Of a stretch of DNA of 64,000 nt, positions 24,621-54,603 are shown piece by piece. The first letter of the stretch is position 1. Each line of letters begins with the position of its first letter. The DNA lies in IMG/VR virus record IMGVR_UViG_2609459826_000002. One strand, written 5' to 3'. The position numbers and the translations under genes were made by a program. Source of the stretch: a virus. Taxonomy: Duplodnaviria > Heunggongvirae > Uroviricota > Caudoviricetes. The notes under the pieces were generated by a model. The model worked only from the letters and a program-made list of their open reading frames with translations, did no database searches and was not told where the DNA came from.

Positions 24621-24689
24621 TGTACCTCCAGTGTACATATTACATGATTAAAATGAACCTTCAAGATACTTGTACCTTAACGGTACAAG
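24621..24689. promoter_or_regulatory. immunity-region operators/divergent promoters
   Basis: Inverted repeat CTTGTACC-n5-GGTACAAG at 24669-24689 plus further TGTAC half-sites at 24621 and 24632 between cro-like and repressor genes. Confidence 0.45.
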
Positions 24690-24704: not shown

Positions 24705-25379
24705 ATGAAAACAATCCATGACATCCGGCGGTCTAACGCCAGAAAACTGAGAGATGGTGTTGGCGGGAATTCTTCCTTTGCCACTATGATTGATCGCGAG
24801 CCAACCCAGACCAGCAGGTTTATGGGAGATGGTGCTACTAAAAATATCGGTGACAGCATGGCACGACACATCGAAAAATGTTTCGACCTGCCTGTCGGAT
24901 GGCTCGATCAAGAACACCAGACAACGAACATCACAAAAAAACCTGATGTTTCAATCACTAATAAACAAATCACATTAGTCCCTGTCATATCATGGGTACA
25001 GGCCGGAGCATGGAAAGAAGTTGGATATTCTGAGGTTGATTTGAGCACAGCAGAAACGTATCCCTGCCCTGTACCCTGTGGGGAAATGACTTATATCTTG
25101 CGGGTGATAGGTGATTCAATGATTGATGAGTACCGCCCGGGAGACATGATTTTTGTCGATCCTGAAGTACCTGCCTGCCACGGTGACGACGTTATTGCAT
25201 TGATGCACGATACAGGTGAAACCACCTTCAAAAGGTTGATAGAAGATGGGACACAGCGTTATCTCAAAGCGTTAAACCCAAACTGGCCTGAGCCTTACAT
25301 TAAGATCAACGGTAATTGCTCTATAATTGGAACTGTGATTTTCTCAGGAAAACCAAGAAGATACAAAATCAAAGCCTAA
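24705..25379 (+). CDS. prophage repressor, LexA/CI-like S24 autopeptidase family
   Basis: 224 aa; N-terminal HTH; C-terminal VIGDSM (Ser) and TFKRL (Lys) motifs of S24 peptidases. Confidence 0.85.
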   Translation: MKTIHDIRRSNARKLRDGVGGNSSFATMIDREPTQTSRFMGDGATKNIGDSMARHIEKCFDLPVGWLDQEHQTTNITKKPDVSITNKQITLVPVISWVQAGAWKEVGYSEVDLSTAETYPCPVPCGEMTYILRVIGDSMIDEYRPGDMIFVDPEVPACHGDDVIALMHDTGETTFKRLIEDGTQRYLKALNPNWPEPYIKINGNCSIIGTVIFSGKPRRYKIKA

Positions 25380-25550
25380 TCAATGTTTATGAACCTGCTT
25401 CGGCAGGTTTTTTTATACTTGACAATGTACCTATGAGATACATAATGTACCCAAGAGAAACAACAAACAGGCAGGACGCCCACGAAGTAGCCGCCGGTGG
25501 CGTATGAATGACCGGATGATTCGTTAAATACTATGTGTAAGAGAGCGCAA

Positions 25551-25754
25551 ATGAACCGTTATTTAACATGCTCGTTTTGTGGCGCAAACGAGCTGCAGGC
25601 AAAAAAAATCATCGCCAAAGGCGGAAAAGATGAAGTTGCTATCTGCTCTGAGTGCGTAGTCTTGTGTGTCGGGGCATTAATCAATAGCAGCACAACTATT
25701 CGGTTCACACCAAATGAGAATGCGCCTTTAGATGCGCGGAAATCTGGAGGTTAA
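25551..25754 (+). CDS. small ClpX-type C4 zinc-finger protein
   Basis: LTCSFCGANELQAKKIIAKGGKDEVAICSECVVLC resembles ClpX N-terminal zinc-binding domain (CSFCG...C.EC); ATG 25551 with AAGAGAG RBS. Confidence 0.55.
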   Translation: MNRYLTCSFCGANELQAKKIIAKGGKDEVAICSECVVLCVGALINSSTTIRFTPNENAPLDARKSGG

Positions 25755-25762
25755 AGAACAAA

Positions 25763-26038
25763 ATGAAAGTCCAGATTTTAAACAATAGTGGTGAAGTCGT
25801 TTGGTCATGCGACATAGCCGCTCCTGTAGATCAGAGCGGCGATAGCTGGACCAATGGGAAACATCAGATTATGGCTGGAGGTGTATTCTCTTTACGCCGT
25901 GCTTTGGAACAGGCTGAAGTCTTTCCATCAGACCCTGAATGGAAATGGCCTTTTTCTATTTGTCCAAATTCGGAGAGTACATTTCAGAAAATTGGTCAGA
26001 AAGTCGCACTCGAAGAGCATCAGCCAACTGTTTCCTGA
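25763..26038 (+). CDS. hypothetical protein
   Basis: 91 aa; ATG with GGAGG RBS; 3' end overlaps a convergent minus-strand ORF. Confidence 0.4.
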   Translation: MKVQILNNSGEVVWSCDIAAPVDQSGDSWTNGKHQIMAGGVFSLRRALEQAEVFPSDPEWKWPFSICPNSESTFQKIGQKVALEEHQPTVS

Positions 26039-26201
26039 TTTTTTCAGGTAACTCGTCGGCATCGCAGAAACAACAACGCTCGATCATGTTGAAAGCCGAT
26101 TCGTAGAACTGTTTTTGCTGAGTGTCGCTGAGACAGGAAAAGAGCGACGTTACGATGATTTTATTAATTGCATTATCAAGTTCTTTTTCATCAAAAGTCA
26201 T
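25956..26201 (-). CDS. hypothetical protein
   Basis: 81 aa; ATG with AAGGAAAA RBS; overlaps 3' end of 25763-26038, so one of the two may be spurious. Confidence 0.4.
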   Translation of the reverse strand: MTFDEKELDNAINKIIVTSLFSCLSDTQQKQFYESAFNMIERCCFCDADELPEKIRKQLADALRVRLSDQFSEMYSPNLDK

Positions 26202-26454
26202 TTGATTTTCCTTTTATGTATACGGGCTTAAAAGGATACCACCGAGCCTGAAGTGGTGAAAAGACAGGCACATAACAGCTAAGTATTTTCAACCTGAGAG
26301 AATCCTTAGCGTTGTGGTGAATGCGGCTCAGCGCACGCGGGTTAAGGTTGAGGCTGACAGTCGACCTTCTGTGGATACCCACCCGCCTGGTGTGCAACCT
26401 TCGCCAGGCACCGGGAGGCACCCGGCACCACAACTTTATGCTGTGTAGTCTTGG

Positions 26455-26500
26455 CGGTACCAGCTTGTACCCTTGCTTCCGGCTGGTACCGTCCTTTTTA
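26455..26500 (+). terminator. rho-independent terminator-like hairpin
   Basis: Perfect 10-bp GC-rich stem CGGTACCAGC/GCTGGTACCG followed by TCCTTTTTA. Confidence 0.4.
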
Positions 26501-26712
26501 CAAAACAGAGAAGAGCATCACCGGACGACGGGCTCATAACCCAATCCATCCGGGCGGCTGCCACCGCAGGTGTTCTTCTCTGTTTTGTGGAGAAACTAAC
26601 CGCCCCTACGGGGGCATTTATGGAAATGTAATTGACTCAATAATCGCCGGACGGTGAGGGCTTCCTTTTACCCGAATTCAGCGCGGTGCAGCGCATATAC
26701 GTGGAGAACAAA

Positions 26713-27249
26713 ATGTCATTTATTAAAACTTTTTCCGGGAAGCATTTTTATTATGACAGGATAAATAAAGACGAAATCGTTATTAACGATATCGCGGTTT
26801 CCCTTTCAAATATCTGTCGCTTTGCAGGACATCTTTCACACTTCTACAGTGTCGCCCAACATGCGGTGCTTTGCAGCCAGCTGGTGCCACAGGAATTTGC
26901 TTTTGAAGCTTTAATGCATGATGCAACAGAAGCATATTGCCAGGACATCCCCGCACCACTGAAACGACTTCTTCCTGACTATAAACGGATGGAAGAAAAA
27001 ATAGACGCCGTAATCCGTGAGAAATACGGGTTACCTCCTGTTATGAGCACGCCAGTGAAATATGCCGATCTCATTATGCTGGCAACCGAACGCCGCGATC
27101 TCGGGCTTGATGATGGCTCTTTCTGGCCTGTACTGGAAGGTATCCCGGCAACAGAGATGTTCAAAGTGATTCCACAGGCACCGGGCCATGCCTACGGGAT
27201 GTTTATGGAACGTTTTAACGAGTTATCGGAGTTACGCAAATGCGCATGA
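26713..27249 (+). CDS. HD-domain phosphohydrolase (YfbR/YfdR-like 5'-deoxynucleotidase)
   Basis: 178 aa from ATG 26713 (GGAGA RBS); H...HD motif (SVAQHAV...LMHDATEAY). Confidence 0.7.
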   Translation: MSFIKTFSGKHFYYDRINKDEIVINDIAVSLSNICRFAGHLSHFYSVAQHAVLCSQLVPQEFAFEALMHDATEAYCQDIPAPLKRLLPDYKRMEEKIDAVIREKYGLPPVMSTPVKYADLIMLATERRDLGLDDGSFWPVLEGIPATEMFKVIPQAPGHAYGMFMERFNELSELRKCA

Positions 27250-27907: not shown

Positions 27908-28257
27908 TGGAGCCATACAGCCTCACACTCGATGAGGCCTGTCATTTTCTCAAGATATCCAGACCGACTGCCATTAACTGGATACGCACAGGGCGTCTTC
28001 AGGCAACACGCAAAGATCCCACTAAGAATAAATCTCCTTACCTCACAACACGACAAGCCTGCATTGCGGCTCTTCAGTCTCCGCTGCATACTGTCCAGGT
28101 GAGCGCGGGTGATGGCATAACAGAGGAAAGAAAATGTCACTCTTCCGCAGAGGTGAAATATGGTACGCCAGTTTCACATTGCCGAACGGTAAAAGATTTA
28201 AACAGTCTCTTGGAACAAAGGACAAAAGGCAGGCGACAGAACTCCATGACAAGCTAA
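27907..28257 (+). CDS. xis: excisionase-like protein
   Basis: ATG 27907; [32 protein letters not shown]; immediately upstream of and overlapping integrase gene; 3' boundary uncertain. Confidence 0.5.
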
Positions 28258-29297
28258 AGGCTGAAGCATGGCGGGTCAGCAAACTTGGTGAAATACCTGA
28301 TATAACGTTCGAGGAAGCGTGTGTCAGGTGGCTTGAAGAGAAAGCACATAAAAAATCACTGGACGATGACAAAAGCCGGATCGGATTCTGGCTTCAACAT
28401 TTCGCAGGAATGCAACTAAGAGACATTACTGAATCAAAAATTTATTCAGCAATGCAGAAAATGACGAACCGGCGTCATGAGGAAAACTGGAAACTCAGGG
28501 CAGAAGCATGCAGAAAAAAAGGGAAACCTGTTCCAGAATACACGCCAAAACCAGCGTCCGTTGCAACGAAGGCTACGCATCTTTCATTTATAAAGGCCCT
28601 ACTAAGAGCCGCAGAGCGTGAATGGAAAATGCTGGATAAGGCACCAATTATTAAAGTGCCTCAACCAAAGAATAAACGGATCCGCTGGCTGGAGCCCCAT
28701 GAAGCACAAAGGCTGATTGATGAATGTCCGGAGCCATTAAAGTCTGTTGTTGAATTTGCACTGGCAACAGGCTTAAGACGCTCGAACATCATCAACCTTG
28801 AATGGCAACAAATAGATATGCAGCGCCGGGTGGCATGGATAAACCCGGAAGAGAGTAAATCAAACCGCGCAATCGGCGTTGCGCTGAATGATACTGCATG
28901 TCGCGTTTTGAAAAAACAAATCGGGAATCATCACCGTTGGGTATTTGTGTACAAGGAAAGCTGCACCAAACCAGACGGAACGAAAGCGCCAACAGTAAGG
29001 AAGATGCGGTATGACGCAAACACAGCCTGGAAAGCGGCGCTGAGACGGGCTGGTATTGATGATTTCAGATTTCACGACTTGAGACACACCTGGGCAAGTT
29101 GGCTGGTTCAAGCCGGAGTCCCGTTGTCAGTGTTACAGGAAATGGGAGGCTGGGAGTCTATCGAAATGGTTCGTCGATATGCTCACCTTGCACCTAATCA
29201 CCTTACCGAACACGCACGGCAAATAGACTCGATCCTGAACCCATCGGTCCCAAATTTGTCCCAGTCAAAAAATAAGGAAGGTACTAATGATGTGTAA
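28134..29297 (+). CDS. int: lambdoid tyrosine integrase (IntD/DLP12-like)
   Basis: 387 aa; near-identity to E. coli DLP12 IntD as recalled; catalytic region HDLRHTWAS...VRRYAHL; stop 15 nt before att core. Confidence 0.9.
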
Positions 29298-29311: not shown

Positions 29312-29360
29312 TGGTGCCGATAATAGGAGTCGAACCTACGACCTTCGCATTACGAATGCG
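29312..29360 (-). other. attachment-site core: 49-nt copy of the 3' end of tRNA-Thr(CGU) (thrW-type), not a complete tRNA gene
   Basis: Minus strand reads CGCATTCGTAATGCGAAGGTCGTAGGTTCGACTCCTATTATCGGCACCA (anticodon loop with CGT, T-arm, acceptor 3' strand, CCA); sequence upstream of it does not continue the tRNA. Confidence 0.75.
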
Positions 29361-29542
29361 ACGTTATTATATTTTTACCCCTTTAAAAACCTACTCTTAA
29401 AACAAGTAATTCATTATAAAACATTGTGTTATGAAAAACACCTGTTGATAAAAATTGACAGGTGTTGATGTTTATTCCCCCATTTTACTTACACCAGCAG
29501 TTACATTATGGTGATGTAACATTTCTCATCTGGAGCCCCAAA

Positions 29543-43978: not shown

Positions 43979-44071
43979 TTTTTAATCCCGCTCACAAATC
44001 CGAATCGTTTCGGTTGCTATCCGAAACGATTCGGATCAACAGTAAGGCATACCCGAAAACGGAGATGTCTT

Positions 44072-51592: not shown

Positions 51593-51919
51593 ATGACTAA
51601 AAATACACGTTTTTCCCCCGAGGTCCGTCAACGGGCAGTTCGTATGGTTCTGGAAAGTCAGGGCGAATATGACTCACAATGGGCGGCAATTTGTTCCATT
51701 GCCCCAAAGATTGGCTGTACACCAGAGACTCTGCGTGTGTGGGTTCGTCAGCATGAGCGGGATACCGGGAGTGGTGATGGTGGACTCACCACCGCTGAAC
51801 GTCAGCGTCTGAAAGAGCTGGAACGTGAAAATCGTGAACTGCGCCGCAGTAACGATATCCTTCGCCAGGCTTCCGCTTATTTTGCGAAGGCGGAGTTCGA
51901 CCGCCTCTGGAAAAAATAA
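51593..51919 (+). CDS. IS3-family transposase OrfA (IS629-like)
   Basis: 108 aa HTH/leucine-zipper OrfA; A6 frameshift window at orfA/orfB junction. Confidence 0.8.
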
Positions 51920-52333
51920 TGCCGCTGCTGGATAAGCTGCGTGAGCAGTACGGGGTCGGACCGGTATGCAGTGAACTGCATATTGCCCCGTCAACGTATT
52001 ACCACTGTCAGCAACAGCGACATCATCCTGATAAACGCAGTGCCCGTGCTCAGCGCGATGACTGGCTGAAGAGAGAGATACAGCGCGTATACGATGAAAA
52101 TCATCAGGTGTACGGTGTGCGTAAAGTCTGGCGCCAGTTGTTACGCGAAGGTATCAGGGTGGCCAGATGTACAGTGGCGCGCCTCATGGCGGTTATGGGA
52201 CTTGCCGGTGTTCTCCGGGGTAAAAAGGTCCGTACTACCGTCAGCCGGAAAGCCGTTTCCGCAGGCGACCGCGTAAACCGTCAGTTCGTGGCAGAACGTC
52301 CTGACCAGCTGTGGGTGGCTGATTTTACTTACG
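51919..52333 (+). pseudogene. IS3-family transposase OrfB, 5' segment (interrupted)
   Basis: Homology to OrfB up to ...QLWVADFTY then intron 5' end GTGTG. Confidence 0.6.
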
Positions 52334-54603
52334 GTGTGCCCGGAGTTCAGGGCGGGCATGGATGCTTAAATGAACCGCGAGTCTGTCTGGAATATTGAAC
52401 CGGTAACTCACGATGAGAAACCCAACAATCCCACCGGGTGTGACGGTGGAGAACCTGAGCGGCAGTGACCTGCGGCATGCCCGCAGGGTGATGTAACCCG
52501 CTGACAACGGGGATTGAGGCGAGATCACTAAGCCGAGATGATCCTCAAGGTTAAGTACTGAAAGGCTGAAGAACATGAACCCGTTAATCCGCCTCTGTGG
52601 GTTGAAAACGTCACCACGGCCTACGTGATCTGACAGGCCGTGCAGGAGGAACTGGCAGTGATACGTAAGCACTGCCGGTCGAAGGTGTTTTGACATGTAT
52701 GCGAAACACCGGGGCAGCAGCGTCTATCACGCTTGCGTTGCTGACTTCTGCCAACTTGCGGCAAGCAAGGATAAAGAGTGCGACGGGCAGCCTCCTCAGT
52801 ATGCCTGAGTCCAGGCAGGTAAACCGGGGAAGGTCAGCGACGGATGTTAAGGGGGCATGGCTCCGATGACGCGCTGGCTGGCGGAGCTTCCGTAGTAGTC
52901 CGCGATGGGGAAAGTCCATTACATGGCGAAGGGAAGCAGTTTGAATGTGTTTGCGACGTGAATTAACTGACCTAACGAGGTGAAGACCTTTGATAATCAG
53001 CGAAATGCAACGCAAGCTTGCCACATGGGCAGTCACCGATCCGTCCCTACGGATTCAACGGCTGCTGCGTCTGATAACACAACCAGAATGGCTGGCTGAA
53101 GCGGCGCGGATCACGCTTTCATCAAAGGGGGCCCATACCCCCGGCGTTGATGGCGTGAACAAAACAATGCTACAGGCCAGACTGGCTGTTGAGCTGCAAA
53201 TCCTCAGGGATGAATTACTCTCAGGCCACTACCAGCCCTTGCCCGCCAGACGGGTTTACATCCCTAAAAGCAACGGCAAACTGCGACCACTGGGTATCCC
53301 CGCGTTGCGGGATCGTATTGTTCAGCGGGCCATGCTGATGGCGATGGAGCCGATATGGGAGAGTGATTTTCATACGCTCTCATATGGCTTCCGGCCTGAG
53401 CGCAGTGTCCACCACGCTATCCGCACGGTGAAATTACAGCTCACAGACTGTGGTGAAACCCGGGGACGCTGGGTGATTGAAGGCGACCTGTCCAGTTACT
53501 TCGACACCGTACATCATCGACTGCTGATGAAGGCTGTACGCCGCAGGATCAGTGACGCACGTTTCATGACTCTGCTGTGGAAAACCATCAAGGCGGGACA
53601 TATCGATGTCGGTCTCTTTCGGGCGGCCAGTGAAGGTGTGCCACAGGGCGGTGTTATATCGCCGCTATTATCGAACATCATGCTGAATGAGTTCGATCAA
53701 TACCTGCATGAGCGCTACCTGAGCGGGAAAGCCAGAAAAGATCGGTGGTACTGGAATAACAGTATCCAACGGGGCCGAAGTACGGCGGTCAGAGAAAACT
53801 GGCAGTGGAAACCCGCGGTGGCGTACTGCCGCTATGCCGATGATTTTGTCCTCATCGTCAAAGGCACCAAAGCACAGGCGGAAGCCATCAGGGAGGAGTG
53901 TCGGGGTGTGCTCGAAGGCAGTCTGAAACTCAGGCTGAACATGGATAAGACTAAAATCACCCATGTTAATGACGGCTTTATCTTTCTGGGGCACAGGATC
54001 ATTCGCAAACGCAGTCGTTATGGCGAGATGCGAGTGGTCTCAACGATCCCGCAGGAGAAAGCCAGAAACTTCGCCGCATCGCTGACAGCACTGTTATCAG
54101 GCAACTACAGTGAAAGCAAAGTCGATATGGCTGAACAACTCAACCGAAAACTGAAAGGCTGGGCCATGTTCTATCAGTTCGTTGATTTTAAGGCCAAAGT
54201 CTTCAGTTATATCGACCGTGTCGTGTTCTGGAAGCTGGCTCACTGGCTGGCCCGCAAATACCGTACAGGTATCGCTTCCCTGATGAGGTGGTGGTGTAAA
54301 TCACCGAAACCGGGTCAGAGCAAAACGTGGGTTTTATTTGGTAAAACCAATCACGGCAAGCTCAGCGGCGAAATACTGTACCGGTTGGTGGGGCAAGGCA
54401 AGAAGCTGTTCCGCTGGCGGCTACCCGAAGGTAATCCCTATCTGAGGACGGAGACCAGAAACACGTATACATCGCGCTTTACAGAAGTGGCAATGGCGTT
54501 CGCCAGCATTTAAATGGAGAGCCGGATGCGCTGAAAGGTGCACGTCCGGTTCGGGGAGGAGAGGCAGGGAAATAGTCCGACTACGCCCTGCCTCTTACTC
54601 TAC
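52334..54603 (+). mobile_element. bacterial group II intron (about 2.27 kb)
   Basis: 5' GTGTG; domain V GAGCCGGATGCGCTGAAAGGTGCACGTCCGGTTC at 54519-54552; ends ...CTAC; encodes RT/maturase; flanking exon frame is restored across the junction. Confidence 0.8.
52990..54513 (+). CDS. group II intron-encoded reverse transcriptase/maturase
   Basis: 507 aa; RT motifs incl. YADD (AYCRYADDFVLIV); maturase X region; no HNH endonuclease domain evident. Confidence 0.9.
   Translation: MIISEMQRKLATWAVTDPSLRIQRLLRLITQPEWLAEAARITLSSKGAHTPGVDGVNKTMLQARLAVELQILRDELLSGHYQPLPARRVYIPKSNGKLRPLGIPALRDRIVQRAMLMAMEPIWESDFHTLSYGFRPERSVHHAIRTVKLQLTDCGETRGRWVIEGDLSSYFDTVHHRLLMKAVRRRISDARFMTLLWKTIKAGHIDVGLFRAASEGVPQGGVISPLLSNIMLNEFDQYLHERYLSGKARKDRWYWNNSIQRGRSTAVRENWQWKPAVAYCRYADDFVLIVKGTKAQAEAIREECRGVLEGSLKLRLNMDKTKITHVNDGFIFLGHRIIRKRSRYGEMRVVSTIPQEKARNFAASLTALLSGNYSESKVDMAEQLNRKLKGWAMFYQFVDFKAKVFSYIDRVVFWKLAHWLARKYRTGIASLMRWWCKSPKPGQSKTWVLFGKTNHGKLSGEILYRLVGQGKKLFRWRLPEGNPYLRTETRNTYTSRFTEVAMAFASI

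Follow-up and report, generated by a model that had tools for sequence, protein, structure and literature searches.

The early-left (PL) operon of a lambdoid prophage carries, at about 26220-26680 of the DNA studied here, a highly structured block that we read as two RNA modules placed one behind the other. The DNA is a 64,000-nt stretch from IMG/VR record IMGVR_UViG_2609459826_000002 (Caudoviricetes), called the window throughout. We give a probability of about 55% to the explanation that accounts best for the whole: the block is the untranslated middle of the PL operon, and it contains two portable plus-strand RNA modules whose functions we infer. Module A is recognizable as a divergent, new and so far unannotated member of the STnc100/PasD family of prophage small RNAs (sRNAs). 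Module B, a predicted three-way junction that displays the anticodon arm of the initiator tRNA (tRNA-fMet), appears to be derived from that tRNA and is apparently undescribed. The cassette, or at least some part of it, is present without any RNA annotation in about half of the complete Escherichia coli genomes searched and in many phages of Shigella, Salmonella and Klebsiella.

A structured, non-coding block

An earlier note on this DNA had drawn attention to the block for its lack of genes and its density of strong hairpins, and the features that it described are all present: a GC-rich stem followed by a T-run, of which the perfect 10-bp core belongs to a 13-bp stem; a perfect 15-bp inverted repeat, whose pairing extends to a 24-bp stem; and a GCCCC-TACG-GGGGC hairpin. 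What the note overlooked is that the first of these hairpins is the terminator of an STnc100-like RNA and that the inverted repeat closes a three-way junction, the tip of which reproduces the anticodon arm of the initiator tRNA. Its opinion that such a repeat would hardly arise by chance was sound. In the whole window only two loci have a perfect 15-mer inverted repeat with a spacer of at most 100 nt, and 20 shuffles of the block gave none; the folds of the block are also more stable than those of shuffled sequence. The other perfect inverted repeat of at least 15 nt with a short spacer lies at 43998-44036.

The block was rightly called non-coding and placed in the early-left operon. Three open reading frames (ORFs) of 68-80 aa can be drawn in it; none has a Pfam match, and their sole PHROG match is partial, covering 23 residues. 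In O157:H7 the sole RefSeq annotation of the region is a pseudogene, 'frameshifted hypothetical'. Is the block a peculiarity of one prophage? Matches were found in SfV, SfII, SfIV, mEp460, Stx2 phages and Salmonella ST64B, as well as in 2,788 of 5,426 complete E. coli genomes; in 601 of them one place accounts for 80% or more of the query. The position is the same in SfV, mEp460 and ST64B, between cI and the early-left genes. E. coli K-12 offers no help with transcript maps, since its prophage CPS-53 has yfdP to yfdT and lacks the cassette. Of the roles suggested in the note, an antisense element finds no gene opposite the folded parts. The idea of a regulatory RNA stands as far as its structural side goes, with conserved plus-strand folds that show compensatory changes, one of them in the STnc100/PasD sRNA family; a regulatory function is a proposal, to which we return below.

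Module A, a relative of STnc100 and PasD with a pseudoknotted core

Nothing in the block reaches an Rfam gathering threshold. In a permissive scan the STnc100 model (RF02076) aligns to module A over model positions 1-206 with 42.6 bits (E=1.2e-7). On the scale of that model, PasD1 of E2348/69, a strain of enteropathogenic E. coli (EPEC), scores 37.7 bits and the phage P1/RCS47 copies 33-38, the copy of phage P1 sitting in the ban operon. Among the E2348/69 loci fetched, Rfam found only PasD1 to be STnc100-like. Other low-scoring matches in the block (ar7, MIR1094 and others) were set aside as chance matches to generic hairpins. The sequence at 26289-26502 folds with z = -2.9, and none of 200 shuffles folds as well.

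Module A shares with STnc100, PasD1 and PasD2 of Salmonella, enterohaemorrhagic E. coli (EHEC) and EPEC every conserved motif of the core, all found within 26311-26434: the GGUGAAU start and CACCGGGAGGCACCCGGCACC inside the closing helix (P1), and the P2 hairpin with its bulged A. The order of core, linker and intrinsic terminator, the prophage location and the full-length Rfam alignment are further points of likeness. The window copy differs in having a P2 of the GCGGC type, not the CCCCC type; in lying in the early-left PL operon, whereas STnc100 and PasD lie in the late Q-to-lysis region; and in lacking the strong private promoter of many members, a TTGACx-18-TAAATT element that ends 8 nt before GGTGAAT and is missing from the whole subgroup to which the window copy belongs. 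Module A thus extends the STnc100/PasD family into the early-left operon.

A motif scan of viral contigs supplied a family sample of 154 instances with 79 distinct cores; 24 copies among the fetched loci, almost all of them taken from the viral contig collection, have a core identical to that of the window. P1 occurs in the family as GTTGTGGTG/CACCACAAC, GCATGGTG/CACCATGC and CTACGGTG/CACCGTAG, and P2 as GCGGC/GC-A-CGC or CCCCC/GG-A-GGG. Over 30 members, 92.6% of the cells in these two helices pair; covariation scores 0.244, compared with 0.101 for shuffled alignments (0/500).

Beyond these helices, the segment just 3' of P2 can pair with the loop of a hairpin lying before CACCGGGAGG; the resulting H-type pseudoknot is absent from the structure line of RF02076. 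The pairing was tested sequence by sequence with permutation controls; its columns are out of register in the MAFFT alignment (A1). Thirty-three distinct compensatory helices were found. Paired with the loop of its own sequence, a segment forms 6.8 bp on average; the averages fall to 4.7 bp with loops taken from other members and to 4.5 bp with shuffled ones. A covarying H-type pseudoknot is, on this evidence, shared by the STnc100/PasD family, and its family-wide presence suggests that the core does more than carry a seed. The hairpin whose loop takes part (hairpin b) has a longer helix in 60 members when G·U pairs are allowed and in 7 when A·C pairs are allowed; for the pseudoknot the numbers are 32 and 5. 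Because G·U-tolerant helices are clearly longer than A·C-tolerant ones, the fold of module A is assigned to the strand that reads GGUGAAU, the plus strand.

The single-stranded linker between core and terminator is our candidate for the likeliest seed or Hfq-proximal segment, since the PasD seed lies at the equivalent position. Its stretch GCUGUGU..AGUCUUG is kept in ST64B despite a differing terminator.

Two relatives vary this part of the cassette in ways of their own. In mEp460 (locus L010, 2810-2950) the closing helix (CGUUGUGGUGAAUGCG ... CACCACAAC) and the terminator are kept around an interior of ~110 nt that differs, which suggests module swapping inside the closing helix. In ST64B (locus L011, 2430-2730), ~300 nt of GC-rich, ORF-free sequence with a terminator of its own lies between the PL leader and module A and may be a further structured RNA.

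Module B, a three-way junction with the anticodon arm of tRNA-fMet

Module B begins on the U-tract of the module A terminator (Table 1). The fold of 26496-26625 has z = -6.9, and none of 200 shuffles folds as well. In an alignment of 18 sequences, 93.3% of the cells are paired, and at nine pairs both partners have changed. Covariation scores 0.184, compared with 0.097 when shuffled (0/500), and pairing in slid controls is only 36-51%. Sixteen of the 18 sequences retain a U·G wobble. Folding on the two strands is far from equivalent: the covariance model built from this alignment gives 121 bits on the plus strand and 41 bits on the minus strand. No Rfam family matches module B.

What does the junction display? 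The 14 nt at 26529-26542 reproduce exactly the anticodon arm of E. coli metZ tRNA-fMet, positions 28-41 counted along the gene, and this sequence is nearly invariant among 75 unique copies of module B. A hallmark of initiator tRNAs is an anticodon stem with three consecutive G-C pairs. The apical hairpin of module B shares these pairs, together with the CUCAUAA loop, with tRNA-fMet (metZ/W/V, metY). In local alignment with metZ the similar part spans D-stem through anticodon arm (z = 4.1; 1 of 500 shuffles), and this alignment is better than those with the sequences used for elongator tRNA-Met and tRNA-Ile2. The exact motif of module B occurs in representative genomes of 26 species, almost all of them Enterobacterales.

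The copies fall into two classes. Class B1, to which the window copy belongs, has the long stem; nearly all unique copies start on the U-tract of the preceding terminator, GGAGAA follows, and none of 113 copies is near a tRNA. In the window the 24-bp stem is followed by GGAGAAAC, with no acceptor stem and NCCA. Class B2, found in Klebsiella-type phages, instead has a 6-bp GGCCUG/CAGGCC stem followed by RCCA, the acceptor-like arrangement by which these copies resemble the members of phage tRNA arrays. Eleven of its 12 copies lie at most 60 nt downstream of a tRNA on the same strand, typically just a few nucleotides past the 3' end of a tRNA that lies downstream of Q. Module B also differs from tRNAs. 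It has no cloverleaf, D arm or T-loop; the place of the acceptor stem is taken in the window by the 24-bp duplex without CCA; and its anticodon arm is extended by a helix of 5-7 bp, unlike that of tRNA-fMet. Mimicry of an anticodon arm has a precedent in the operator of the thrS mRNA.

Of the other Pas sRNAs, PasA was compared with module B; the PasA region of E2348/69, read by eye, showed no resemblance, and PasA was rejected. One locus (L145, 10097-10193) has a module-B-like element, with the loop ACUCAUAA, fused to a module A. There CUGUUGUG serves both as the 3' strand of the module B closing stem and as the 5' strand of P1 of module A, so the two pairings are mutually exclusive. A role of such a fusion as a switch was set aside because it is known from this single locus.

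RNA or DNA, and which strand

Could the block act as DNA? A recombination hotspot, a mosaic 'boundary sequence', a remnant of an insertion sequence (IS) or miniature inverted-repeat transposable element (MITE), a protein-binding palindrome or a cruciform would be examples, and some observations speak for such a role. Phage mosaic breakpoints lie at ~26239, 26451 and 26613, which are module edges; both 26253 and 26587 have a short motif like GUGGUGAA; and the 3' hairpin is duplicated around an insert in SfV. The block is, however, present in a single copy in the window, is always syntenic, and shows no terminal inverted repeat or target-duplication architecture. Compensatory changes preserve pairing, the U·G wobble of module B is retained, and helices tolerant of G·U far outperform those tolerant of A·C, a pattern that is specific to one strand and is not that of duplex DNA. 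The strong preference of the covariance model for the plus strand points the same way. This strand-asymmetric covariation already largely refutes a DNA-level element, which we consider extremely improbable; the recombination element, protein-binding site and IS/MITE terminus raised in the earlier note are not supported either. As for the breakpoints themselves, they indicate a block made of exchangeable modules.

The edges of the cassette show some of this exchange. Relatives have a hairpin of other sequence where the window has the small GC hairpin. In SfV (locus L001, 4403-4416 and 5709-5807) a 1.3-kb insert with orf32 and orf31 lies between two copies of window 26602-26700; the duplicated segment begins with the small hairpin and extends up to where yfdR begins, and the hairpin thus marks a mosaic junction. 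The short motifs GUGGUGAAAA (26253-26262) and GUGGAGAAAC (26587-26596) resemble the 5' start of module A, GUGGUGAAU, and may be recombination scars between modules.

The minus strand offers a different explanation, in which the block serves as promoter or 5' untranslated region (UTR) of an 81-aa ORF at 25956-26201, or else encodes small proteins. Two features favour the ORF: a full-length match to PHROG 3311 and a good ribosome-binding site. Phage P1 provides a parallel, with upl on the minus strand, the STnc100-like core on the plus strand and predicted upl promoters beyond the core; the upl mRNA would there be antisense to the core. Against this stand a terminator-like hairpin (26257-26238, minus strand) between the block and the ORF, a promoter scan of 26202-26700 that found no minus-strand promoter, the failure of both RefSeq and the SfV annotation to call the ORF, the lack of family support for ORFs inside the block, and structural covariation that is specific to the plus strand. 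A role as the 5' region of the 81-aa ORF is possible only for the leftmost 60 nt of the block, and as an account of the block we find this explanation very unlikely. Two observations on the ORF may be added. It abuts module A in an arrangement that resembles upl beside the STnc100-like core in the ban operon of phage P1 (locus L004). It also overlaps by 83 nt another small ORF with PHROG support on the opposite strand, at 25763-26038 (plus).

Table 1. Positions in the window of the two modules, their parts and the flanking features of the prophage.
Feature	Position	Strand	Remarks
cI-like repressor gene	24705-25379		Terminator at its end
PL promoter, TTGACA-16-CATAAT	25419-25446	+	Promoter scan 11/12; directly after cI terminator
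OL/PL, two operators	25419-25462	+	TGTACCTATGAGATACA and TGTACCCAAGAGAAACA, overlapping PL
PL leader RNA element	25463-25523	+	Covarying hairpin; directly after PL, ~60 nt
Hairpin at 5' edge of conserved cassette	26238-26257		ACCACCGAGCCTGAAGTGGT; terminator-like on minus strand; many phage matches begin at ~26239
Weak sigma-70-like promoter candidate, AAGACA-17-TATTTT	26261-26289	+	Predicted start of module A near 26296
Module A	26289-26502	+	Rfam RF02076; 5' leader, structured core, linker, terminator
Module A core	26311-26434	+	
P1 helix	26311-26319 with 26426-26434	+	GUUGUGGUG with CACCACAAC; covaries
P2 hairpin	26323-26338	+	Bulged A; covaries
Pseudoknot	26344-26350 with 26395-26401	+	AAGGUUG with CAACCUU of the hairpin b loop
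Hairpin b	26385-26392 with 26402-26409	+	
P5	26411-26425	+	CCGGGAGGCACCCGG
Linker	26435-26452	+	UUUAUGCUGUGUAGUCUU; single-stranded, unpaired in minimum-free-energy and centroid folds
Module A intrinsic terminator	26453-26499	+	13-bp stem, 15-nt loop, CUUUUU
Terminator stem	26453-26465 with 26481-26493		GGCGGTACCAGCT with GGCTGGTACCGTC; perfect 10-bp core, then CTTTTT at 26494-26499
Module B (class B1), three-way junction	26496-26592	+	
Module B closing stem	26496-26519 with 26569-26592	+	24 bp including wobbles
Inverted repeat inside closing stem	26500-26514 and 26574-26588		ACAAAACAGAGAAGA and TCTTCTCTGTTTTGT; perfectly complementary
Module B arm 1	26521-26553	+	Topped by GGG-CUCAUAA-CCC
Initiator-tRNA-like anticodon stem-loop	26529-26542	+	CGGG-CUCAUAA-CCC (CGGGCTCATAACCC); 'anticodon' CAU at 26535-26537
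Module B arm 2	26554-26567	+	Length varies among relatives
Small GC hairpin, GCCCC-UACG-GGGGC	26602-26615	+	3' mosaic boundary of cassette
yfdR-like 5'-deoxynucleotidase gene	26713-27249	+	First early-left gene past the block; PHROG 318, E=8e-109; RefSeq name yfdR
Integrase gene	28134-29297		
tRNA fragment	29323-29379		

The PL operon and its leader

The prophage is of the SfV/SfII/ST64B/CP-933H lambdoid type and is integrated at thrW. We identify 25419-25462 as its OL/PL region, reading on the plus strand into the block, which starts ~850 nt further on. The operator type TGTAC-N7-GTACA found at OL recurs at OR (24621-24687), between cI and cro; the operators of HK022 look similar. The order along the PL transcript is two small ORFs, the block, and then the yfdR-like gene, xis and int. 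The product of the first ORF after PL (25533-25754), 73 aa long, contains a C4 zinc finger of the ClpX type (Pfam PF06689, E=5.6e-11). An svsR/C0293-like sRNA of an NC-SV prophage has been reported at the cI 3' end and terminator, which here corresponds to ~25300-25410 (PMC12803456); we considered svsR as a match for the block and rejected it, as it sits at a different place.

How is transcription carried past the module A terminator? Directly behind PL lies a leader that is 85-97% conserved in phages of many genera and immunity types and occurs behind at least eight promoter/operator types, as seen in the window, in SfV (L001), in ST64B (L011) and at ~50 viral loci. Its hairpin covaries, with stems CCUGG/CCAGG, CCGGU/ACCGG and CCCCA/UGGGG. 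Since the module A terminator needs read-through, no N-like gene is evident in the prophage and the leader is conserved with a covarying hairpin, we propose the leader as a candidate cis-acting antitermination signal, perhaps put-like. A layout of PL, conserved leader, terminators and genes, with no obvious N gene, offers a possible case of RNA-based antitermination outside HK022.

The comparison with HK022 itself gave likenesses of arrangement: a phage group apparently without an N-like gene, terminators in the PL operon and a conserved structured leader after PL. At the level of sequence, the leader shows no convincing similarity to HK022 putL, which was located and read, and no second, putR-like copy was found. 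Compared with the whole window by blastn-short, putL gave chance-level word matches only, none of them within the block. The block itself was rejected as an HK022-type put RNA: it lies ~850 nt past PL, module B follows a terminator, which is not the put position, and it gave no match to putL in that comparison. A second copy of the block in the window or in SfV, as in a putL/putR-like pair, was likewise rejected, the 'second place' being the 3' tail repeated around the insert.

How the two modules may work

The proposal that follows extends to expression, processing, Hfq dependence, targets and the purpose of the mimicry, and it builds on the observed structures, strand, family relationships and genomic position. 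Module A probably accumulates as a stable, Hfq-type RNA of ~140-215 nt that would pair in trans, by analogy with PasD and STnc100. The analogy draws on published data for both: STnc100_4 has been confirmed by Northern blot, and the copies in Table 1 of the same study have EHEC transcriptome reads (PMC5331693); the Pas sRNAs, including PasD1 and PasD2, were confirmed by Northern blot and depend on Hfq for stability, and RIL-seq has given targets for PasD1 and PasD2 (PMC8550237). The relationship between PasD and STnc100 has itself been described (bioRxiv 10.64898/2026.05.13.724894). The RNA could arise from its own weak promoter, with a start near 26296, or as the 3' end of the PL-proximal transcript. 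Its terminator would form a barrier that only read-through, that is antiterminated, transcription crosses to reach yfdR...xis-int.

For module B, processing is the predicted theme. The early transcripts of lambdoid phages and of T7 contain RNase III hairpins, such as the lambda N-leader site and sib. The module B duplex resembles these in being at least 20 bp long, nearly perfect and placed in the PL operon upstream of early-left genes; a difference is the conserved three-way junction inside its stem, for which the classical sites have no counterpart. The 24-bp stem is conserved with compensatory changes, and its duplex fits a predicted RNase III substrate in this phage group. The 6-bp acceptor-like stem and RCCA of class B2, placed after tRNA genes, would fit a tRNA-processing substrate. 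Finding the same core inside either an RNase III-type duplex or a tRNA-type stem with RCCA suggests that the functional product is the core once it has been excised. The core would be released as a small stable RNA, and the cut would uncouple the upstream RNA from the downstream early-left mRNA.

A purely cis-acting stack is the main alternative. Terminators, insulators and processing or stability signals would gate PL transcription into yfdR...xis-int together with an antitermination signal such as the PL leader, no function would be exerted in trans, and the conservation of the modules would reflect selection for termination, processing and mRNA stability. A strong terminator within an operon that needs read-through to xis and int agrees with this, as do the two or three successive terminators between PL and the first gene in ST64B and the conserved leader right after PL in many immunity types. 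Class B1 stands nearly always directly after a terminator U-tract, and pairing is possible between this tract and the conserved GGAGAA on the 3' side of the module; the block has no strong promoter of its own. Simple hairpins would suffice for such tasks, however. A covarying, pseudoknotted core of ~115 nt that is shared with free-standing sRNA genes under strong promoters is left unexplained, and so is an almost invariant copy of the initiator-tRNA anticodon arm that recurs in the tRNA arrays of other phages. We regard a purely cis-acting stack as a plausible but rather unlikely alternative.

Why would a phage copy the anticodon arm of the initiator tRNA? One further step can be taken from the two-module explanation, and we take it tentatively, judging it quite doubtful in its full form. 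Module B would be an undescribed anticodon-arm mimic, delivered through two alternative processing cassettes (a long stem of RNase III type in PL operons, a tRNA-like stem with RCCA in tRNA arrays), that acts as decoy or competitor for a factor recognizing the anticodon arm of tRNA-fMet and so protects or biases translation initiation while the phage develops; the pseudoknotted STnc100 core would bind a protein or ligand and be no passive scaffold. PIN toxins of the VapC/MvpT type cleave tRNA-fMet in enterobacteria, and these toxins, the 30S P-site with IF3, and methionyl-tRNA synthetase (MetRS) are candidate targets of the decoy. If this were true, module B would represent a new way in which phages interfere with translation initiation or with toxin-based defence.

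Several observations weigh against the two-module explanation. Module A scores below the RF02076 gathering score of 47, and it is because it falls just under this threshold that the module has gone unannotated. The AAGACA-17-TATTTT element is the best -35/-10 pair upstream of the core, yet it is weak, was not called by the standard promoter scan and is absent from ST64B. Beyond the 14-nt arm, the similarity of module B to tRNA-fMet is modest. ARAGORN calls no tRNA in the window, the Rfam tRNA model has no match in 25900-27000 at E<=10, and the class B2 copy in phage GZ7 is not called as a tRNA by tRNA finders. The promoter or 5' UTR of the 81-aa minus-strand ORF, which abuts the block, could overlap 26202-26260. 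The literature and the EDL933 tables yielded no expression or functional data for this locus: an RNA-seq study of EDL933 lists 11 STnc100 copies, none near CP-933H, and its supplement has no novel non-coding RNA at ~300 kb. Expression in uninduced lysogens may be low.

Other RNA elements in the window

Elsewhere in the window, two RNA elements reach Rfam gathering level. An ALIL pseudoknot, the frameshift signal of IS3-type elements, lies at 51874-51990 (120.9 bits), and the catalytic domain of a group II intron at 54517-54603 (64.9 bits).

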